From contig NC_135809.1 in the NCBI RefSeq assembly GCF_964213995.1, forward strand, positions 59,520,001 to 59,584,000: a DNA stretch of 64,000 nt, read 5' to 3'. The position numbers were made by a program, and so were the translations under genes. Shown one piece after another: positions 6,215 to 61,770 of this stretch; position 1 is the first letter of the stretch, and each line of letters begins with the position of its first letter. The notes below the pieces were generated by a model that saw nothing but the letters and a program-made list of their open reading frames with translations, did no database searches and was not told the origin of the DNA. The stretch is from Mustelus asterias (taxonomy: Eukaryota).

Positions 6215-9200
6215 TACCAATATTCTGGGGGGGGGGAGATTTGCTAATGCTCTTCGGGAGGGTTTAAACTAATTCGGCAGGGGAGTGGGAACCTGAATTG
6301 TTGCTCCAGTGTACGGGAGGATGTGAGTGGTGAGGTCATGAATAAGGTTTCAAGGTCGCAGGAGTGTACCGGCAGGCAGGAAGGTGTTTTGAAGTGTGTC
6401 TACTTCAACGCCAGGAGCATCCGGAATAAGGTGGGTGAACTTGCAGCATGGGTTGGTACCTGGGACTTCGATGTTGTGGCCATCTCGGAGACATGGATAG
6501 AGCAGGGACAGGAATGGTTGTTGAAGGTTCCGAGGTTTAGATGTTTCAGTAAAATCAGAGGTGGTGGTAAAAGAGGGGCAGGTGTGGCATAGTTAGTCAA
6601 GGACAGTATTAGGGTGGCAGAAAGGATGTTTGATGAGGACTTGTCTACTGAGGTAGTATGGGCTGAGGTTAGAAACAGGAAAGGAGAGGTCACCCTGTTG
6701 GGAGTTTTCTATAGGTCTCTGAAAAGTTCCAGAGATGTAGAGGAAAGGATTGCAAAGATGATTCTGGATAGGAGCAAAAGTAACAGAGTAGTTGTTATGG
6801 GTGACTTTAACTTTACAAATATTGACGGGAAACTCTATAGTTCAAGTACGTTAGATGGGTCAGTTTTTGTCCAATGTGTGCAGGACGGTTTCCTGACACA
6901 GTATGTAGATAGGCCAACAAGAGGCGAAGCCACATTGGATTTGGTACTGGGTAATGAACCAGGCCAGGTGTTAGATTTGGAGGTAGGTGAGCACTTTGGT
7001 GATAGTGACCACAATTCGGTTACGTTTACTTTAGCGATGGAAAGGGATAGGTATATACCGCAGGGCAAGTGTTATAGCTGGGGGAAAGGAAATTATGATG
7101 TGATTAGGCGAGATTTAGGATGCATAGGATGGGGAAGAAATCTGCAGGGGATGGGCACAATTGAAATGTGGAGCTTGTTCAAGGAACAGCTACTGCGTGT
7201 CCTTGATAAGTATGGGGCAGCACGGTAGCACAGTGGTTAGCACTGCTGCTTCACAGCTCCAGGGTCCTGGGTTCGATTCCCGGCTCGGGTCACTGTCTGT
7301 GTGGAGTTTGCACATTCTCCTCGTGTCTGCGTGGGTTTCCTCCAGGTGCTCCGGTTTCCTCCCACAGTCCAAAGATGTGCGGGTTAGGTTGATTGGCCAG
7401 GTTAAAAATTGCCCCTTAGAGTCCTGGGATGCGTAGGTTAGAGGGATTAGTGGGTAAATATGTGCGGATAGGGCCTGGGTGGGATTGTGGTCGGTGCAGA
7501 CTCGATGGGCCGAATGGCCTCCTTCTGCACTGTAGGGTTTCTATGATTTCTATGATCTATGATGTACCTGTCAGGCAGGGAGGAAGTGGTTGAGTGAGGG
7601 AACCGTGGTTTACTAAAGAAGTTGAATCTCTTGTGAAGAGGAAGAAGGAGACTTATGTAAAGATGAGACATGAAGGCTCAGTTAGGGCGTTTGAGAGTTA
7701 CAAGTTAGCCAGGAAGGACCTGAAGAGAGAGCTAAGAAGGGCCAGGAGGGGACATGAGAAGTCTTTGGCAGGTAGGATCAAGGAAAACCCTAAAGCTTTC
7801 TATAGGTATGTCAGGAATAAAAGAATGACTAGGGTAAGATTAGGGCCAGTCAAGGACAGTAGTGGGAAGTTGTGCGTGGAGTCCGAAGAGATAGGAGAGG
7901 CGCTAAATGAATATTTTTCATCAGTATTCACACAGGAAAAAGACAACGTTGTCGAAGAGAATACTGAGATACAGGCTATTAGACTAGGCGGGATTGAGGT
8001 TAATAAGGAGGAGGTGTTAGCAATTCTGGAAAGTGTGAAAATAGATAAGTCCCCTGGGCCGGATGGGATTTATCCTAGGATTCTCTGGGAAGCTAGGGAG
8101 GAGATTGCAGAGCCTTTGGTTTTGATCTTTATGTCCTCGTTGTCTACAGGAATAGTGCCAGAAGACTGGAGGATAGCAAATGTTGTCCCCTTGTTCAAGA
8201 AGGGGAGTAGAGACAACCCTGGTAATTATAGACCAGTGAGCCTTACTTCTGTTGTGGGCAAAGTTTTGGAAAGGATTATCAGAGATAGGATTTATAATCA
8301 TCCAGAAAGGAACAATTTGATTAGGGATAGTCAACACGGTTTTGTGAAGGGTAGGTCGTGCCTCACAAAGCTTATTGAGTTCTTTGAGAAGGTGACCAAA
8401 GAGGTGGATGAGGGTAAAGCAGTTGATGTGGTGTATATGGATTTCAGTAAAGCATTTGATAAGGTTCCCCATGGTAAGCTATTGCAGAAAATACGGAGGC
8501 ATGGGATTGAGGGTGATTTTGCGGTTTGGATCAGAGATTGGCTAGCTGTAAGAAGACAGAGGGTGGTGGTTGATGGGAAATGTTCATCCTGGAGTTCAGT
8601 TACTAGTGGTGTACCGCAAGGATCTGTTTTGGGGCCACTGCTGTTGTCATTTTTATAAATGACCTGGACGAGGGCATAGAAGGATGGGCTAGTAAATTTG
8701 CGGATGACACTAAAGTCGGTGGAGTTGTGGACAGTGCGGAAGGATGTTGCAGGTTACAGAGGGACATAGATAAGCTGCAGAGCTGGGCTGAGAGGTGGCA
8801 AATGGAGTTTAATGCGGAAAAGTGTGAGGTGATTCACTTTGGAAGGAGTAACAAGAATACAGAGTACTGGGCTAATGGTAAGATACTTGGTAGTGTGGAT
8901 GAGCAGAGCGATCTCGGTGTCCATGTGCATAGATCCCTGAAAGTTGGCACCCAGGTTGATAGGGTTGTTAAGAAGGCGTACGGAGTGTTAGCTTTTATTG
9001 GTAGAGGGATTGAGTTTCGGAGCCATGATGTCATGTTGCAGCTGTACAAAACTCTGGTGCGGCCGCACTTGGAGTATTGCGTACAGTTCTGGTCGCCACA
9101 TTATAGGAAGGATGTGGAAGCATTGAAAAGGGTGCAGAGGAGATTTACCAGGATGTTGCCTGGTATGGTGGGCAGGTCTTATGAGGAAAGGCTGAGGGAC

Positions 9201-9588
9201 TTGAGGTTGTTTTCGTTAGAGAGAAGAAGGTTAAGAGCTGACTTAATAGAGGCATACAAGATGATCAGAGGATTAGATAGGGTGGACAGTGAGAGCCTTT
9301 TTCCTCGGATGGTGATGGCTAGCACGAGGGGACATAGCTTTAAATTGAGGGGTGACAGATATAGGACAGATGTCAGAGGTAGGTTCTTTACTCAGAGAGT
9401 GGTAAGGGCGTGGAATGCCCTGCCTGCAGCAGTAGTGGACTCGTCAACATTAAGGGCATTTAAATGGTAATTGGATAAACATATGGATGATATTGGAATA
9501 GTGTAGGTTAGAGGGGCTTTAGATTGGTTTCACAGGTTGGCGCAACATTGAGGGCCGAAGGGCCTGTACTGCGCTGTAATGTTCTATG
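6215..9588 (+). mobile_element. HER1-like CR1 LINE: end of ORF1, near-complete disrupted ORF2 (APE endonuclease + RT) and 3' tail
   Basis: ORF1 end ...RFANALREGLN*. APE motifs YFNARSI, ISETW, MGDFN, SDHN. RT motifs DFSKAFDKV, GVPQGSVLGP, FADD. Premature stops, a frameshift near 8655 and a SINE insertion at 7215. Confidence 0.97.
7215..7560 (+). mobile_element. Full-length HE1-like V-SINE inserted in CR1 ORF2
   Basis: tRNA-like head with A/B boxes (GTGGTTAG, GGTTCGATTCC), V-domain GTGTGGAGTTTGCACATTCTCC...GGTTTCCTCCCACAGTCCAAAGA and a (CTATGATT) tail. It splits GATAAGTATG|TACCTGTCAGG. Confidence 0.95.
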
Positions 9589-12197: not shown

Positions 12198-12325
12198 GAC
12201 GAAGGAGCAGCGCTCCGAAAGCTAATGGCATTTGCTACCAAATAAACCTGTTGGACTTTAACCTGGTGTTGTTAAAACTCTTGCTGTGTTTACCCCAGTC
12301 CAACGCCGGCATCTCCACATCATGA
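12198..12325 (+). mobile_element. PLE family A terminal (pLTR) fragment
   Basis: Homologous to 13056-13142 and to the inverted part of 12577-12677. Begins inside the hammerhead core (GACGA...GAAA). Confidence 0.85.
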
Positions 12326-12576
12326 CAGGAGTGACAGCAGGCTGAGCAAGGTAAAGCTAACTTACAGGAGCACCAAAAGTGAAAAAATGAGTTCAGTGTT
12401 AGCTCAGAAGATAACAAGGGTGGCAGGTTACAGCAAAACAACAGAAACAATGGAGCAATTGTAATAGAATGGAAAATGATGCACACAGGTTTCATAACGG
12501 GAATCATGCTATCTTTTATTTCCTTCCCTTCCACTTTTCTCTGCCTCCTCTGAAGCCTGTATCAGTATTGGAAACC

Positions 12577-13142
12577 ATGATGTGGAGATGTCGGCGTTGG
12601 ACTGGGGTAAGCACAGTAAGAAGTCTCACAACACCAGGTTAAAGTCCAACAGGTTTATTTGGTAGCACAAGCCACAAACTCTCACGGGCATTCAGCCTCT
12701 GATCTTCGGGTAAATGTTCTCCAAGGCAGCCTTCATGACACACGACAACGCAGAGTCGCTGAGCTGAAACTGATAGCCAAGTTCCGCACACATGAGGACT
12801 GCCTCAACTGGGATCTTGGGTTCATGTCACACTATCTGTAACCCCCACGACTTGCCTGGGCTTGCAAAATCTCACTAACTGCTCTGGCTGGAGACAATAC
12901 GCATCTCTTTAACCTGTGCTTAACCCTCTCTCCACTCACATTGTCTGTACCTTTAGGACTTGATTACCTGTAAAGACTCGCATTCCAACCATTATTTTGC
13001 AAATTGAGTTTGTGTCTTTATATGCCCTGTTTGTGAACAGAACTCCCACTTACCTGATGAAGGGGCAGCGCTCCGAAAGCTTGTGGCTTGTGCTACCAAA
13101 TAAACCTTTTGGACTTTAACCTGGTGTTGTGAGACTTTTTAC
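12577..13142 (+). mobile_element. 5'-truncated Penelope-like element (family A): inverted pLTR piece, GIY-YIG C-terminus and pLTR
   Basis: Peptide NSHGHS...RRVAELKLIAKFRTH..CLN.DLGF is typical of the PLE GIY-YIG end. 12577-12677 is an inverted copy of the pLTR. TSD TCAG(T/C)ATTGGAAACC at 12562-12576 and 13143-13157. Confidence 0.9.
13051..13085 (+). ncRNA. Minimal type I hammerhead ribozyme motif in PLE pLTR
   Basis: TAC-CTGATGA-A-GGGGC-AGC-GCTCC-GAAA-GC-TT-GTG: core boxes, stem II, palindromic AAGCTT stem III and a short stem I. Confidence 0.8.
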
Positions 13143-13224
13143 TCAGCATTGGAAACCCATTGTTATCTTATTCAGCTTGATGGCTGAAGCTGCACGATCA
13201 GCAGATTGTTCATAGTCAGGTAAA

Positions 13225-14505: not shown

Positions 14506-16596
14506 GAACTAATGAAAAGTGGAATTTTTTCAAGGAACAAATACTGGATGTCCTTGATAGGTATGTTCCTGTCAGGCAGGGAGGAAATGGCCGAGTGAGG
14601 GAACCATGGTTCACAAAAGAGGTGGAATGTCTTGTGAAAAGGAAGAGGGAAGCTTATGTAGGGATGAGGAAACAAGGTTCAGATGGCTCGATTGAGGGTT
14701 ACAAGTTAGCAAGGAATGAGCTGAAAAAGGGGCTTAGGAGAGCTAGGAGGGGACATGAGAAGTCCTTGGCGGGTCGGATCAAGGAAAACCCCAAGGCTTT
14801 TTACTCTTATGTGAGGAATAAAAGAATGACCAGGGTGAGGTTAGGGCCGGTCAAGGACAGTAGTGGGAACTTGTGTATGGAGTCAGTAGAGATAGGCGAG
14901 GTGATGAATGAATACTTTTCTTCAGTGTTCACCAAGGAGAGGGGCCATGTTTTTGAGGAAGAGAAGGTGTTACAGGCTAATAGGCTGGAGGAAATAGATG
15001 TTCGGAGGGAGGATGTCTTGGCAGTTTTGAATAAACTGAAGGTCGATAAGTCCCCTGGGCCTGATGAAATGTATCCTAGGATTCTTTGGGAGGCAAGGGA
15101 TGAGATTGCAGAGCCTTTGGCGTTGATCTTTGGGTCCTCGCTGTCCACGGGGATGGTGCCAGAGGACTGGAGAATGGCGAATGTTGTTCCTCTGTTTAAG
15201 AAAGGGAATAGAAATGACCCTGGTAATTATAGACCGGTTAGTCTTACTTCGGTGGTTGGTAAATTGATGGAAAGGGTCCTTAGGGATGGGATTTACGACC
15301 ATTTAGAAAGATGCGGATTAATCCGAGATAGTCAGCACGGATTCGTGAAGGGCAAGTCGTGCCTCACAAATTTGATAGAATTTTTTGAGGAGGTAACTAA
15401 GTGTGTTGATGAAGGTAGGGCAGTTGATGTCATATACATGGATTTTAGTAAGGCGTTTGATAAGGTCCCCCATGGTCGGCTTATGATGAAAGTGAGGAGG
15501 TGTGGGATAGAGGGAAAGTTGGCCGATTGGATAGGTAACTGGCTGTCTGACCGAAGACAGAGGGTGGTGGTCGATGGAAAATTTTCGGATTGGAGGCAGG
15601 TTGCTTGCGGTGTGCCGCAGGGATCAGTGCTTGGTCCTCTGCTCTTTGTGATTTTTATTAACGACTTAGAGGAGGGGGCTGAAGGGTGGATCAGTAAATT
15701 TGCTGATGACACCAAGATTGGTGGAGTAGTGGATGAGGTGGAGGGCTGTTGTAGGCTGCAAAGAGACATAGATAGGATGCAAAGCTGGGCTGAAAAATGG
15801 CAAATGGAGTTTAACCCTGATAAATGTGAGGTGATTCATTTTGGTAGGACAAATTTAAATGTGGATTACAGGGTCAAAGGTAGGGTTCTGAAGACTGTGG
15901 AGGAACAGAGAGATCTTGGGGTCCATATCCACAGATCTCTAAAGGTTGCCAGTCAAGTGGATAGAGCTGTGAAGAAGGCCTATAGTGTGTTAGCTTTTAT
16001 TAACAGGGGGTTGGAGTTTAAGAGCCGTGGGGTTATGCTGCAACTGTACAGGACCTTGGTGAGACCACATTTGGAATATTGTGTGCAGTTCTGGTCACCT
16101 CACTATAGGAAGGATGTGGAAGCGCTGGAAGGAGTGCAGAGGAGATTTACCAGGATGCTGCCTGGTTTGGAGGGTAGGTCATATGAGGAAAGGTTGAGGG
16201 AGCTAGGGCTGTTCTCTCTGGAGCGGAGGAGGCTGAGGGGAGACTTAATAGAGGTGTATAAAATGATGAAGGGGATAGATAGAGTGAACGTTCAAAGACT
16301 ATTTCCTCGGGTGGATGGAGCTATTACAAGGGGGCATAACTATAGGGTTCGTGGTGGGAGATACAGGACGGATATCAGAGGTAGGTTCTTTACGCAGAGA
16401 GTGGTTGGGGTGTGGAATGGACTGCCTGCAGTGATAGTGGAGTCAGACACTTTAGAAACATTTAAGCGGTTATTGGATAGGCACATGGAGCACACCAGGA
16501 TGATAGGGAGTGGGATAGCTTGATCTTGGTTTCAGATAAAGCTCGGCACAACATCGTGGGCCGAAGGGCCTGTTCTGTGCTGTACTGTTCTATGTT
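14506..16596 (+). mobile_element. Young 5'-truncated CR1 (HER1-like) LINE
   Basis: Uninterrupted RT frame. The 3' UTR ends GGGCCGAAGGGCCTGTTCTGTGCTGTACTGTTCTATGTT. Confidence 0.97.
14595..16523 (+). CDS. CR1 ORF2 reverse transcriptase domain (open frame, but no endonuclease or promoter)
   Basis: 642 aa with YRPVSLTS, QHGF, DFSKAFDKVPH, GVPQGSVLGP, FADD and LVRPHLEYCVQFWSP motifs. Confidence 0.9.
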   Translation: MREPWFTKEVECLVKRKREAYVGMRKQGSDGSIEGYKLARNELKKGLRRARRGHEKSLAGRIKENPKAFYSYVRNKRMTRVRLGPVKDSSGNLCMESVEIGEVMNEYFSSVFTKERGHVFEEEKVLQANRLEEIDVRREDVLAVLNKLKVDKSPGPDEMYPRILWEARDEIAEPLALIFGSSLSTGMVPEDWRMANVVPLFKKGNRNDPGNYRPVSLTSVVGKLMERVLRDGIYDHLERCGLIRDSQHGFVKGKSCLTNLIEFFEEVTKCVDEGRAVDVIYMDFSKAFDKVPHGRLMMKVRRCGIEGKLADWIGNWLSDRRQRVVVDGKFSDWRQVACGVPQGSVLGPLLFVIFINDLEEGAEGWISKFADDTKIGGVVDEVEGCCRLQRDIDRMQSWAEKWQMEFNPDKCEVIHFGRTNLNVDYRVKGRVLKTVEEQRDLGVHIHRSLKVASQVDRAVKKAYSVLAFINRGLEFKSRGVMLQLYRTLVRPHLEYCVQFWSPHYRKDVEALEGVQRRFTRMLPGLEGRSYEERLRELGLFSLERRRLRGDLIEVYKMMKGIDRVNVQRLFPRVDGAITRGHNYRVRGGRYRTDIRGRFFTQRVVGVWNGLPAVIVESDTLETFKRLLDRHMEHTRMIGSGIA

Positions 16597-17826
16597 CATT
16601 GGTTAACTGTAAGTCTTTGTTGACTTTTAAAGTTATTTCAAATATACAGTAAAGGGTTCAAGCTAGGAGCTGTCTCCATGCTTGCCACTACACTATATGT
16701 GCCAGACTCTTATACTACAGCGAACAACCAAAAGCTTAAGGTCATGTTTGCGGACTGCCCATCCAGCAAAGCAATCACCCAATCTGCACTTGGTTTCCTC
16801 AATGTCAAGGGAAATATCTTCATCCATCAGCCACATAAGCACTTCACAATCTCGAATCCTTCACCAAAAACCACCCAATATTTTTAGAATTCACCCACTG
16901 AACCTTTCTGAAGAAAACGATGTTGTGGGTTTTGCATTTGGCTTTTGCTTTAGACAATGTTAAGCCACGGCTTAAAATGGATTCTGTCTAAGAAAAAAAA
17001 GCAATCCTTTTCATTCCTGTAGATCTGATTGACAGCTCTTGTCACTCAGTGAAAAGACTTATTTTCATCTAATGTAATCTTTTTAATGCATGATTAGTGC
17101 CCTTAGACTAAAGGTCTTTAATCCTCCCTCTGCTCTGAATCCAGCAATAAAGCTTCAAAGAGCTCGAAGAATATTTTGGTCCTGCTTTGTGAGTGTGGGT
17201 TTTAATGCCCTCAGGAGAAGGAAAGTTCTCTCAAGAACTTTTCTTAATTTCCAATTAAGATTCAGTCAAAGTAAGCAGGGCAAATGGGGCCAGCTAACTG
17301 TCAACACATTAAATAATGAGCCTTATTACAGGAAATCAAACTAGCTTCCCTCCCCTTACACCTGCTTCAAACATACCTCATATCATCCACATTGATAAAT
17401 CTTCGATGTACTTTCAATTAAATCTACAGCAGAGAAAGGAGAGTCAAAAATAGGTGCACATTTCCACTCCTTTAACTGAGAGTTGTAGCCTATCAAAATC
17501 CAATCCCAGCTCCCGATTGTTCAGTTTGTCTCATAAATAGGGTAAGCCATACGGATTCTGAGGATCCCAGTCTCCATCCTCAATCTGTGTGGACACAGCC
17601 AGAGTGTTAATAAGGCTACCACAGTTTGCCTCAGTTCCTTAGTCAAGGAAAAAGAAATTGCCATCTGAGAATCGAGTCACTGTCTGACAACTTCAGCTCG
17701 ACAGTGTTCCTGCCACTCTGTATCGACGAGATTCGATTCAGCTGCAGTAAGCTCACACAAGAGAATATCTTGCAACGCTCACTGCCAAAAATCATATCTA
17801 AATGATAATCGCAGACGGCAAAGCTG

Positions 17827-18054
17827 TCTCGCCTTTTGGCTAAGATCAAGCATCAGATCAAACGCAAGATGGGGTGCAATGCCTTATTTTGTCAGTTTGG
17901 ATCTTGCACATCTCTCTTGTGGGGACCATGAATTGGGTTCAACCTGAATTTGAATTTGGTTTTTGGAGCAAGCAAAGGAGGACTTGGGTTTGCCCAGTCC
18001 ACTCTGAGCATTGGCTTTGTAATTTTATGGTTGGGGCAAAACATTTTTTAAAAA
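17827..18054 (+). pseudogene. Diverged U2 snRNA-derived element (copy A)
   Basis: TCTCG-CCTTTTGGCTAAGATCAAG matches the U2 5' end. It is followed by colinear, diverged similarity to the U2 stem II region, an Sm-site-like TGGTTTTTGGAGCA and GTCCACTC. Possible decayed TSD AAAGCYGYC. Confidence 0.75.
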
Positions 18055-18774
18055 GCCGCCCTGAAATGACACTGACAAAGGCGTTTGTGCCCTTAGGAGA
18101 GGTGTGGAGACAATTGGCAAAAGGTCATTGCAGCATGCAACCAACATGCATTTCCATTCTGAGGGGGCAGGGTACATAAATGTTCCCGAATTTGCTGTAA
18201 CCAGTCAAGGAATGGTCTTTGCTGTTAAATTGCAATGATATTTTGTGCTGGAAGTGAGAAATGGAATCAACATCTGGAACTTGTGTGAACAAGGCAAGCA
18301 TCTGTGCCCCTCCTCAACTAACCGAGTGAAGCATCATGAATTTAACAAGAGTGGGTGAATTTAATGTCAAATCAGGAAGAGCAGGCAAAATAAAGAGAAT
18401 GAAAGAAAGGTTGGATCGAGAGAGGAAAAAACAATGAAAACATTTTTAAAAACATAATTTTAAAATAATGATTTAAATCCTGCAAAATTAGAATTTGAAG
18501 GAATGAAACTCCACACTTGTAATTAATTCGCAGTGCAGATGTTAATTGGCAGCACTTATACTTATTAAACTGTCAAAGGTCTATTTGCATTTGTAATTAT
18601 AAGGTTTAACATTTGTTCATATCTACAGTGGAAAAAATCCCAGCATACAATGCACAGAAAATGGGAGCCAATTAGCTTAATACCGAGAGAGGAATGGCTC
18701 ATTTTGGATGGTTATATTTAAATGCCTGTGCTTTAATTGTACATCTATTGAAGTTGCTGCATCATTTATGCATA

Positions 18775-43796: not shown

Positions 43797-43883
43797 CCTG
43801 ATGAAGGGGCAGCGCTCCGAAAGCTTGTGCTGCCAAATAAACCTGTTGGACTTTAACCTGGTGTAGAGAGACTTCTTACTGTG
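43797..43883 (+). mobile_element. PLE family A pLTR fragment starting at the hammerhead core
   Basis: CCTGATGAAGGGGCAGCGCTCCGAAAGCTTGTG...AAATAAACCTGTTGGACTTTAACCTGGTG. Confidence 0.85.
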
Positions 43884-46507: not shown

Positions 46508-48111
46508 GAGCAAGAGGTCAGCAAGAGCATGTCCTCCACCCTGAAAGCCCTAAATGAAACTGTATCTGGGGTCACCATTGCAGATGTCAGAGCAGCTTTC
46601 TTGAAGGTCAACCCATGAAAAGCAACTGGTCCAGATAGGGTATCCACACGTGCACTCAGATCCTGCGCAGATCAGCTGGCGGAGGTATTCGCAGACATCT
46701 TCAACCTCTCTTTACAACAATCTGAGGTCCTTATCTGCTTCAAGAAGGCGACCATCATCCCGATACCTAAGAAAATCCAAGCAGCGTGCCTTAATGACTA
46801 TCCGCCGGTGGCTCTGACATCGATCACTATGAAGTGCTTCGAAAGGTTAGTCATGGCACGAATCAATTCCAGCCTCCCGGACTACCTGGATCCACTACAG
46901 TTTGCCTACCGCTGCAACAGGTCCACAGCAGATGCCATTTCCCTGGCCCTGCACTCAACCCTGGAACACCTAGATAACAGGGACACCTATGTCAGACTCC
47001 TATTTATTGAGTACAGCTCAGCCTTCAACACTATTATTCCCACAAAACTCATCTCCAAACTCCGTGGCCTGGACCTCAGCACCTCCCTCTGCGACTGGAT
47101 CCTGAACTTCCTAACTCACAGACCACAATCAATAAGGATAGGCAACAACACCTCCTCCACAATAATCCTCAACACTGGTGCTCCACAAGGCTGTTTTCTC
47201 AGCCCTCTACTGTACTCCTTGTACACCTATGACTGCGGAGAAATTCCCCTCCAATTCGATTTTCAAGTTTGCTGACGACACCACCGTAGTGGGTCAGATC
47301 TCAAACAATGACAAGACAGAGTACTGGAATGAGATAGAGAATCTGGTGAACTGCTGTGACGACAATAATCTCTCCCCCAATGTCAACAAAACAAAGGAGA
47401 TTGTCATTGACTTCAGGAATCGTAGAGGGGAACATGACCCTGTCTACATCAATGGGGACGAAGTAGAAAGGGACGAGAGCTTCAGGTTTTTAGGTGTCCA
47501 GATCACCAACAACCTGTCCTGGTCCCCCAATGCCAACACGATAGTTAAGAAAGCCCAACAATGCCTCTACTTTCTCAAGACCAAGGAAATGTAGCATGGC
47601 AGCTATGACTCTCACCAACTTTTACAGATGCACCATAGAAAGCATTCTTTCTGGTTGTATCACAGTTTGGTATGGCTCCTGCTCTGCCCAAGACCGCAAG
47701 GAACTACAAAAGGTCGTGAATGTAGCCCAATCCATCACGCAAACCAACCTCCTATCCATTGACTCTGTCTATACTTCCCACTGCCTCAGCAAAGCAGCCA
47801 GCATAATTAAGGACCCCACGCACCCTGGACATTCTCTCTTCCACCTTCTTCCTTCGGGAAAAAGATACAAAAGTCTGAGGTCACAATCCAACCGACTCAA
47901 GAACAGCTTCTTCCCTGCTGCTGTCAGGCTTTTGAATGGACTTACCTTACATTAAGTTGATCTTTCTCTACACCCTAGCTATGATTGTAACACTACATTC
48001 TGCACTCTCTCGTTTCCTTCTCTATGAACGGTATGTTTTGCTGTATAGCGCGCATGAAAGAATGCTTTTCACTGTATGTTAATACATGTGACAATAATAA
48101 ATCAAATCAAA
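46508..48111 (+). mobile_element. Rex1/Babar-clade LINE, 5'-truncated and frameshifted
   Basis: [63 protein letters not shown] and FADDT motifs, with a (TCAAA)n tail. Inserted in a minus-strand LINE-B (46315-46505 / 48112-48700). Confidence 0.9.
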
Positions 48112-51534: not shown

Positions 51535-51970
51535 TAGAAAATGCTGGAAAATCTCAGCAGGCCTGACAGCACCTGTGGAGAGAGAACAGAGCCAACGTTT
51601 CGAGACTGGGTGACTCACTTTTCTGTTTTTGTTTCAGATTCCAGCATCTGCAGTAATTTGATTTTAACGTGCGTGGAGTTTTCATATTGGAGACTGGCAC
51701 ACTGCTTCAAACTGGTTGCTCAATCTGAATATTGATCAAAGCACTTATTGAACATTAAGGGTAAATTTATAAAGTCCTATATGGGTATATCATTATAATA
51801 AAAGCAAAACATTGCAGATGCTGGAATCTGAAACAAAAACAGAAAACGCTGGAAAATCTCAGTAGGTCTGACAGCAGCTGTGGAGGTCACCCAGTCTCGA
51901 AACGTTGGCTCTGTTCTCTCTCTACAGATGCTGTCAGACCTGCTGAGATTTTCCAGCATTTTCCGGTTTG
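51535..51970. mobile_element. Two internally inverted PLE family B fragments (51535-51666 and 51800-51970)
   Basis: Each joins sense and antisense pLTR pieces, and both share the variant GAGACTGGGTGAC. Confidence 0.8.
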
Positions 51971-57482: not shown

Positions 57483-57991
57483 CCTTTAGCTTTTGCTTCA
57501 GTTTCCTCAGGGACTCCAAAAAATCCCCATACCCTGGAGACAATATTAAAAAATAATTATCTTAAAGGCAAACATAAAACGGATCCATTTTCCATTATAT
57601 TCTCATCCACAACTGGTTGCACTTCTACAATATATAGTTTAATTGCATGAATTTATTATTTTCAATCTACTCTCAAAGCTCCTTTTCAGGAAGGCACTTT
57701 CATTCGTCTGGAACTATCCTGTCCATGCTGCTAGTTAGCATATATTGATCTTGTTCACAGAAATATTCACCACAAAGGTTAAAGGTACTGCCTCTCAAGG
57801 TGTTCCAGTCAAGCTCCTCCTTTACAACTACAACTGGAAGTTGAGCAGCAGCGCTATGGGAAAAGAATAGGAGTAACTGAATAGCTACTTTAAAAGGAAG
57901 CCACAGGTATGATGGCTCTCTCTGTGCTGTACGATGCCATAATTCTAAGATAACTTTGTAATTGTGGATCTACACCAATGCGACCACCAGC

Positions 57992-58443
57992 TAAAAACCT
58001 TTTGGCTAAGATCAAGTGTAGTATGGACGGTATGGGTTGCCCGTCCGTGCTGTGCTTGGTTGGGGTCATTAGGTTATATTATAAGCTTCATTTAAAAATG
58101 AATCAATTTTTAAAAACCGGCATCTCGGCCTTTTTTGGCTGAGATGCAAATGAGATCAGCCTTGGAGGAGGTGGGCTTGCGCCTGCTCCAATCAGCTTGT
58201 CTCATGTAGATCAAGCCCGAGATGGAGGCTGCAGAACCTGGTATGCATGATGTGGAGATGCCGGCGTTGGACTGGGGTAAACACAGTAAACCTGTTGGAC
58301 TTTAACCTGGTGTTGTTAAACTTCTTACTGAACCTGGTATGGCCACAGGGGATGCAGACTCTGTCTTGTCAGCTTGGATCAGGAATGTCTCAACTTGTTG
58401 AGACTTTGAATTGGATTTGATTTGATTGGAAAAGTTAAAAAAA
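57992..58443 (+). mobile_element. U2 snRNA-derived composite retroposed element (copy B)
   Basis: 57998-58024 is an exact match to U2 nt 13-39 (CCTTTTGGCTAAGATCAAGTGTAGTAT). Second U2 stem-I-like unit at 58120-58147, A-tail, and perfect TSD AATGCGACCACCAGC (57977-57991 and 58444-58458). Confidence 0.85.
58246..58329. mobile_element. Mini PLE family A insertion (inverted + forward pLTR pieces) nested in the U2-derived element
   Basis: Matches 12576-12617 and 12243-12285. 12-bp TSD GAACCTGGTATG at 58234-58245 and 58330-58341. Confidence 0.88.
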
Positions 58444-60076
58444 AATGCGACCACCAGCCATAAGTAAAAGACTCCCATTTATATTACACGTTATCACATC
58501 CCAGAACACTTCATCTGCATCGAGCCACCTTGCAGTGACCATTGAATAAATATGGGCATCATTTAAACACTGCAAGATCCCATAGAGAGTAATGGACAAA
58601 TGCCTAATTAAGCAACTCTGCTGGTGTTATGGGAGAAATGAACATTGGCTTAAATAGTGGATGTTTCGGGCAAATGGTGCCCGGAATGTGTTACACCCGC
58701 TTAAAACCTGGAACAGGCAGGGAGGGCCTCAGATTAATGGACTGGAGCTCACTGGAAAATAATGGCAAGTGCACAATGCTCGCCACTATTGACGTACAAA
58801 TCAGCTAGCAACTTAAGGCAATGAAGAAATATGCCATTAGTTGAGAATTGCCAAAATGGCCTTGTCAATTTATGCAGTTCTGCCATTTGCTTTGCACTAT
58901 AATCATCTTGCCTTTTGCCCTGCAGTTATTTTCAAGTACTTTCTGGATTGCATTTTAATTGCCTGTTAAACTTGCCACAGAAAGTTATATCTGGTAATTA
59001 AGAATATAAGTATTCTTAACAGCATGATAATTGTTAATGCAATGCCAATTAACACCCTGGTCCAGAAACTGAACAATTCAAATTGTGGAATCTCATTCCA
59101 ACAGGTAGTAAATAAGACCATAAGATATAGGAGGAGAAGTAGGCCATTGAGTCTGCTCCTCTATTCACTGAAATGCATGGCAGGCAGAACTATTTATTGA
59201 ATAGACTTTTGCTGTTAACCTTGGTCGTGTTGTCATAAAATATATCACTGTGAACACATGGCTAGAGGGATCTCGAGTTACTTGTGTTAGGGCAGAAAGG
59301 AAATGCACACAAATCTTTCCTCAGGAGGTAAAATGATTCACCATTTCGGTAACAAGATGAATTAAACATACGAGTGTGGGAGGACTGGGCCAGTCAGACT
59401 AAATAGTCTTTCCTCAGCCTATATTCTATATATTCATTTTTCCATCTTTTCTTGGTTTGAGCAGGACTTAATAAATCTTATCTCATTTGCATGTGCAGCA
59501 CTAATCAATCATGGTTTTCATGAATAGGAAGAAGAATTTGCCAATGAACAGAAAAGATGTGAGAAACGGGCTGTACTATTGTAAGCAAAAACTCCCATGA
59601 TAGTGGCCATGGAAAACAAAGAACCAAGAATTTCACCTGTGCTTGAAAAGTATCCTCCAGTCTTCAGACACAAAGCTCTCTCAGAGTTGGTCAAGCCAAG
59701 CTGCAGTTTGACCTTTGCCATTTTGACCTTGGTGGTAATAAGGCCGGTTCAGACTCTTGTTGCCCGGGAATCAGGCTCTTCCAAGGACAAAACTCTTTGC
59801 ACAATAATCCACTACTCAGCAGATGGTAAAACTAATCACAATATTTCCTCATGGCTCCTGTGAAGATTTTCTTTTGTCTGTTAGGTTCCACCAGACCACA
59901 GGGTCCGAAGTTAACAAAACAATCAACTATTTAGTCTTCTTGAGAATTGTTTTCATCCCACAGCCATTTCTGTTAATGACAGCACCAGAATATCATGAAT
60001 TGATTCCAAACATGCAGTAAACCATTCCAATGAGAAGGGGGTCCCCTTACCGACCACTGCAAACAATGGGCCCATC

Positions 60077-61104: not shown

Positions 61105-61770
61105 CGTGCACTTACATCGCACCTTCCATGACCTTAGGCCTCCCCAAAGCACTTAAGAGTCACTGAAATACGTTTGAAGTGCAGTCACCATTGTAATGTA
61201 GGAAATGCGACAGCCAATTTGTGCACAGCAAGATCCCACAAACAGCAAAGTGATCATGACCAAATCATTTTTAAAAAATATTGGTTGAGGGATTATTATT
61301 AATAAATATGCAGATAAACATTACTCTCCCACTCATCTTTAAAATAACAAGTCTCCATCGTCCCAGGCCAAAGGCGTCACTCCCCTTTTGGGGGTGTCTG
61401 ACTGGTGATAATTTAACCTGAGGGTCACCACACCTCAGGTGAAGGGCAGGGTTGAGAAGGTGGGGCCTTCATGAATAACCTCAGCCAGTACAGGAATTGA
61501 ATCTATGCTGTTGGCATCATGAGCCAACTGTCCAACCAACTGAGCTAAACTGGCTCCCCCTATCTATTAAATAGTGCAATAAGATTTTTAATATCCACCT
61601 GAGGGGGCAGACGGGACTTTAGATTACATCTCATCTGAAAGACAGCACCTCTGACAGTGCAGAATCCCCTCAGTAGTGCCGCGAAGCAGCAGATCAGATT
61701 TTGTGTTGAAGTCTCCGGCGTGGGACTGGAACCCACAATCCACCGACACAAGAGGAAGCTACTGTTGTGA
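61105..61770 (-). mobile_element. Deu-SINE interrupted by a fourth-family SINE (61345-61560)
   Basis: Both halves match the reverse complement of 54892-55338. Confidence 0.75.

Follow-up and report, generated by a model that had tools for sequence, protein, structure and literature searches.

Two U2-derived elements, copy A and copy B, lie in the 64,000 nucleotides of Mustelus asterias DNA analysed here (the window; NC_135809.1, positions 59,520,001 to 59,584,000), and the question is what they are and from which promoter such elements could be transcribed. The promoters of snRNA genes are external, so SINEs headed by an snRNA should lose their promoter at the first jump. Copy A is an old member of a dispersed retroposon family, and copy B belongs to a younger, multi-module sister family.

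Copy A (17827..18054, plus strand) is a near-full-length U2-derived SINE of family A, with 89.4% identity to the family majority over positions 7-223. It starts with a U2 head (17827..17850, U2 nt 7-31), which matches the U2 of this genome in 24 of 25 columns. The head is followed by a module in common with copy B (17855..17959), consisting of two nested helices, a stem-IIb-like hairpin and a repeat-like spacer, then by a degenerate Sm-like U-run and a 3' part derived from stems III and IV, both missing in copy B (17960..18041), and finally by an A/T-rich tail (18042-18054), all on the plus strand. Nearly all of U2 is covered collinearly, and about 124-132 of 178 aligned columns match the genome's own U2. 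The Rfam U2 match at this place is weak (17820-18044, 34.4 bits, E 0.0032) and lies under the gathering score of RF00004 (46 bits), while copy B is absent from the Rfam matches. The strings quoted in the initial annotation were located at 17855-17936 for copy A and 58208-58416 for copy B. Its remark that copy A lacks the branch-recognition hexamer GTAGTA was correct; the Sm-like segment which it described as kept is present, yet with G in place of the conserved A. No convincing target-site duplication of copy A is left, the best candidate being 7 nt.

The quoted B string covered only the 3' third of copy B, which begins 210 bp before it with an intact U2 head that contains the branch hexamer. 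The whole element (57992..58443, plus strand, 452 bp) is a multi-module U2-headed SINE of a young subfamily with an A-rich tail, and its 15-bp target-site duplication is exact (57977..57991 on the 5' side, 58444..58458 on the 3' side, plus strand). The U2 head (57998..58024, plus strand, U2 nt 13-39) matches U2 in 27 of 27 positions and ends at the Keno target junction, the position of which on U2 was taken from section 6 of PMC4640811. A second hairpin derived from the U2 head (58120..58151, plus strand) was read in the sequence, with a sister copy folded, and a perfect octamer motif (58144-58151) closes it. The module in common with copy A (58208..58433, plus strand) is split by an 85-bp insertion made up of two fragments from an abundant repeat (58245..58329, strand not assigned), which is flanked by an 11-bp duplication (58234-58244 and 58330-58340) and missing from all 11 sister copies displayed. 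Copy B is built from duplicated modules: the U2 head, the hairpin derived from that head, and two stem modules paralogous to each other, of which the second is common to A; it stops short of the Sm site and has no 3' stems. Its 5' part (233-249 bp) is found with 92-98% identity at 19 other loci and with about 80% in older subfamilies. The repeat behind the insertion has other copies in the window (12243-12657, 13101-13143 and 43838-43881) and is also found in the main U2 spacer. In head-to-tail B pairs the octamer lies roughly 170-205 bp upstream of the start of the next copy, which could be chance; this is about the usual position of the distal element of snRNA genes.

Copy A, a sister copy of B (L053) and the genome's own U2 were put into a three-way alignment, in which 75 columns are alignable in all three. 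A and L053 share 14 changes away from U2 in these columns, where about 5 are expected (independence model, P ~0.0006), and 27 columns without U2 counterpart are common to both, 19 of them identical. The non-canonical changes which the initial annotation had seen in both copies are thereby borne out. Local alignment gave z scores of 10.5 for A-B, 6.4 for A-U2 and 2.9 for B-U2. By substitutions alone A is equidistant, with 50 of 75 columns matching U2 and 50 of 75 matching B, so the closer tie between A and B, which had been made the decisive point, stands on the shared changes and the insertions. A 15-mer shared by the two copies has two exact occurrences, and with at most 2 mismatches it gives 4 matches against 0.49 expected.

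Of 286 cells in the shared module, 96.5% keep the pairing; both sides have changed in 7 of 25 pairs, a number reached by 3 of 500 shuffles. The 12 rows of this alignment were picked by hand from about four related subfamilies, a U2 row in it is partly misaligned, and the structure was derived from these very sequences, so that a real structural constraint is suggested at most. An HDV-like ribozyme or a kink-turn was rejected for the module, since neither the helix order nor tandem G-A pairs fit (judged by eye against the consensus), and no Rfam family of either kind was found in the window.

Such pairing, together with the collinearity of A with nearly all of U2, could be taken for the trace of a functional variant U2 snRNA or structured ncRNA gene, with A and B as its processed pseudogenes. 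This is improbable. The pairing counts come from only those few related subfamilies and their own structure; A has lost the branch hexamer and the Sm-site A, while B has neither Sm site nor 3' stems and consists of duplicated modules. Both finish in a Keno-like tail with no 3' box. An A-type body was found behind none of the 75 upstream sequences of U2 genes, that is 0 of 58 of the main type and 0 of 17 of the second type (25-mers with 2 mismatches allowed, by which diverged promoters and collapsed arrays are missed), and main-type U2 upstream DNA precedes none of 59 aligned A copies. The window copies themselves have no U2 upstream region, all 58 and 17 25-mers being elsewhere, and their tails are A-rich. 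Thus common descent and modular subfamilies, as first proposed, are supported, while A-rich tails, duplications and the empty search argue against a variant snRNA gene as the source; a source locus for A carrying U2 upstream DNA was not among the 58 and 17 upstream sequences in the genome.

The two families were counted in the 3.68-Gb assembly. The copy A query gave 3,709 candidates, of which the 40 scored were all dispersed and, apart from the window copy, 83-90% identical over about 225 bp. An exact A 30-mer has 142 genome matches and its reversed control 0, and the family size was extrapolated to about 800-5,000 copies depending on the assumed divergence (about 10^3). The 59 aligned A copies are 82-96% identical to the majority, about 225 nt long and collinear with U2 except for two insertions; the starting points of all 59 fall within U2 nt 1-22, 7 being at +1, and no single shared repeat occurs at a fixed position in their flanks. 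A B-type 18-mer has 5,459 matches (reversed control 0), which is a lower bound on the B-type copies, whose length is about 310-360 nt. The suspicion of a high genomic copy number was therefore right. At an inferred total of about 8,000 copies the genome average would be about one per 460 kb, and two in 64 kb exceeds this.

Duplications of at least 11 nt flank 9 of 48 A copies with full 3' end, against 2 of 377 mismatched-pair controls. For B the figures are 41 of 66 and 46 of 323 controls, both raised by tandem heads: more than one B copy is present at 24 of 57 loci, some in opposite orientation, and 20 of the first 100 B matches listed are in pairs less than 450 bp apart. With these target-site duplications and their A-rich tails, A and B are almost certainly SINEs. 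An additional, more diverged U2-headed element (L299:1250-1500, minus strand) has two A/B-like modules in series and joins U2 nt 39, and it is possibly a third family linking A and B.

It is scarcely credible that A and B are independent chimeric U2 retrocopies instead of self-propagating families. Truncated U2 retrocopies are known in mammals, and the processed and tailless U2 pseudogenes resemble A and B as U2-derived retrocopies with target-site duplications; these, as far as the relevant part of PMC5322556 goes, are one-off copies of true snRNA, whereas A and B have derived modules in common and fall into subfamilies. Dozens of aligned copies agree in their insertions, ends and diagnostic changes, which already contradicts independent chimeras. 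For annotators this is a warning that thousands of weak U2 matches in such genomes are retroposons.

The nearest known elements are the SINEU-1, -2 and -3 families of Kojima 2015 (PMC4494074), which in the part of that paper describing them also have a U2-derived head, a length below 500 bp, an A-rich tail and repeated U2-derived segments. All of these are present in the A and B families, which moreover consist of many copies with common structure and duplications and not of independent chimeras. Further likenesses in the same account are tandem insertions around the duplication, a Tx1 partner and internal T-runs, and in both SINEU-3 and family A an entire U2 gene seems recognisable in modified form. 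SINEU is described there only from crocodilians, with Tx1-Mar as partner; no promoter was found, transcription from the flank was suggested and the matter was left open, an account repeated in the corresponding parts of PMC5381603 and PMC5786205. The differences are that the host here is a shark and not a crocodilian, that the partner targets U2 itself (Keno type) where the crocodilian one targets Mariner-N4_AMi, that the tails of A and B resemble the partner tail, and that copies at +1 behind U2 upstream DNA occur, which the SINEU account in PMC4494074 does not report. The shark families presumably arose independently of crocodilian SINEU, the likeness being one of description and not of consensus sequences. 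The literature searched holds no shark SINEU and no SINE behind U2 promoters; Repbase and Dfam were outside its scope, and the families may be catalogued there. With A and B, a second vertebrate lineage has SINEU-like families, and their genomic fossils offer an answer, open to test, to the question of transcription.

The candidate partner is a Tx1-type LINE (L111) which sits in a U2 array of 8-kb period. It was called Keno-type by its domains and its nt-39 junction: it has RNA-binding domains of the ZCCHC3 type as well as a zinc knuckle, an AP endonuclease and zf-RVT, its reverse transcriptase match is partial and falls short of the Pfam cut-off, and ORF2 in the copy read is broken into two frames. 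At the 3' end L111 runs directly into U2 nt 39, the Keno/Utopia site according to the sections of PMC4640811 and PMC6136364 on these elements, and a 20-nt U2 duplication lies before the LINE. With the Keno LINEs treated there L111 has in common an AP endonuclease, an RT (in L111 a fragment), a zinc-knuckle ORF1 and the 3' end at nt 39, while the L111 family differs in being also widely dispersed, in a fixed head of U2 nt 1-35 and in apparently carrying non-autonomous SINEs. A search with its ORF1 gave no named Keno protein at E 1e-20; a piece of ORF2 had one unnamed match (45%), and the Atlas returned ZCCHC3-like chordate clusters. The array (G000:C24:44.81-44.94 Mb) consists of sixteen units in tandem, about 8 kb long; every unit holds an intact U2 gene and a Keno copy that has lost its own upstream promoter region.

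In the genome 140 Keno ORF1 matches were found, about 40 of full length. Dispersed Keno copies start with U2 nt 1-35, often head to tail beside A or B copies, and the Keno tail resembles the tails of A and B. Junctions between an A-tail and U2 nt 39 numbered 33, of which 30 were fetched; with 14 array repeats set aside, 16 of these were examined, and the element before nt 39 was Keno in 9, B-type in 5 (one of them only about 71% alike), an A copy in 1 and neither in 1. One U2 gene with intact upstream region (L199) is split by a B-type copy, a Keno copy and a B-type copy one after another, and behind each of the three U2 resumes at nt 39. A Tx1-clade partner, judged by common target as for SINEU, is thus pointed to by the nt-39 junctions, the tandem neighbours and the similar tails. 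From the common junctions, the serial insertions and the tails we strongly infer that Keno mobilises the SINEs in trans, and a Keno-type Tx1 LINE would very probably be the partner that copies A and B. Beyond the head, the A module and the Keno 5' end have the same spacing and weak similarity (z 2.0, 10 of 200 shuffles); homology of the A/B module to the Keno 5' UTR was not accepted at a z of only about 2, which is a hint at most.

The true U2 genes are in arrays on contig C24. The main-type upstream 25-mer occurs 58 times, always on C24, and precedes U2 in 57 cases and a B-type copy in one. This sole SINE behind main-type upstream DNA is an internally deleted variant; it was rejected as master of a subfamily, as its deletion is absent elsewhere among the 40 scored of 677 candidates. 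A second U2 type (G000:C21:28.05-28.08 Mb, L309-L316) shares about 89% identity with the main type. Its unit measures about 448 bp, its Rfam score is 175.5 bits, and it has an upstream sequence of its own, a region defined by position before intact U2 genes and not by function. Behind the 17 second-type upstream 25-mers comes a B-type SINE starting at +1 in 8, Keno in 5 and an intact U2 in 4. In four of these 8 B copies about 230 bp of the upstream DNA is retained, the 7 printed belong to different subfamilies, and the identity between the copy at L308 and the eight dispersed copies nearest to it is 97.8-99.0%. No promoter-linked copy of the young subfamily of copy B was found, and no perfect octamer lies upstream of main-type or second-type U2 in the loci checked. 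In the main array at G000:C24:42.98-43.06 Mb (L195-L198), 9 of 31 U2 units examined are only 87-93% like U2; in one such unit duplicated head segments replace the Keno-site region, with upstream region and 3' box intact. These diverged units are possibly repair scars amplified in the array.

Six dispersed blocks contain upstream DNA plus SINE, and around 5 of them flanking duplications of 9-18 bp that belong to the block itself were recognised by eye, so RNAs with both U2 upstream DNA and a SINE were retroposed. On the A copy at L003 and on some Keno copies, 5' U2 extensions end at nt 50-59, inside the 16-20 nt duplication made by insertion at nt 39, as is expected if the template sat inside a U2 gene. 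A B-type query gave no RNA record among the 15 records listed, 13 of which contain part of the query.

As far as genomic sequence can indicate, A and B are probably SINEU-like families copied by Keno and transcribed from the U2 promoter, which would be regained by insertion at U2 nt 38/39. A SINE resident in a U2 gene would be transcribed from U2 +1, and the Keno ORF2 protein would bind its Keno-like tail, with endonuclease and reverse transcriptase acting on the SINE RNA in trans. The RNA would be copied mostly to weakly preferred sites and at times back to U2 nt 38/39. There the SINE head would substitute for U2 nt 1-38, because the two have the same sequence, and the upstream promoter with the whole SINE would form a new master. 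Most daughters would land elsewhere or in tandem, without promoter, while read-through RNAs from the short second-type array would also be retroposed and scatter the upstream-plus-SINE blocks. Family A would have taken this route at an earlier time and has apparently lost its masters, and the window copies A and B would be inert daughters. That promoter capture is the main source of SINE RNA seems likely as well. The wider reading, in which an independently evolved shark SINEU lineage is sustained by promoter capture, holds with Keno 13 of the 17 second-type U2 genes and spreads promoter-plus-SINE cassettes, is slightly favoured.

Several observations go against capture. Target specificity is weak, since most copies lie outside U2 genes; what the retroposed blocks document is read-through that began farther upstream and not initiation at the SINE +1; and the lone main-type-linked SINE has no daughter among the 40 candidates scored. 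The chief rival keeps the same SINE families and Keno, with an internal, tandem-neighbour or host read-through promoter, heads template-switched onto U2 snRNA and the copies in U2 genes as dead ends. It would account for the fact that only 9 copies are behind U2 upstream DNA against thousands in the genome, and the perfect octamer in B, the close B pairs and the lone copy without scored daughters agree with it. It is also close to the SINEU model, template switching included, as set out in the relevant part of PMC4494074. It is nevertheless rather unlikely, as B copies of different subfamilies start at +1 behind 8 of 17 second-type upstream sequences, upstream DNA and SINE travel together in retroposed blocks, and the U2 extensions end within the insertion duplication. 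In addition, the internal T-runs speak against Pol III, an argument also made in that part of PMC4494074.

A known system akin to promoter capture at U2 is that of the R2 SIDEs in 28S rDNA (PMC3414825), which are short and non-autonomous, belong to a site-specific retrotransposon and obtain their RNA from a target-gene co-transcript. Those SIDEs are internal R2 deletions and R2 uses a 5' ribozyme in rDNA, whereas A and B are mostly U2-derived, have thousands of dispersed copies and would be transcribed from the very start site of U2. If capture is true, SINEU had a second vertebrate origin, SINEs without internal promoters have a general route to transcription, and the turnover of SINE subfamilies is tied to that of U2 gene arrays. 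A direct test of transcription is possible at the loci where a B-type copy follows U2 upstream DNA at +1, and each of these copies has diagnostic variants.

Some further features of the window were observed. A near-perfect 114-bp inverted repeat (51846-51959) has sub-threshold miRNA matches, and a similar sequence flanks L302, so it is probably a common repeat. Other LINE reading frames are present at 6593-9470, 14508-16523 and 46619-47275. A 671-aa frame among them matches RT-domain proteins, with identities of 78% and 74% to two shark proteins and 41-56% to birds and turtles among the 120 matches listed, which agrees with a shark host; two matches labelled as bacterial (66% and 79%) are probably mislabelled. 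Lastly, a weak tRNA-like match (61483-61554, minus strand, 25.1 bits) is probably the head of a tRNA-derived SINE.
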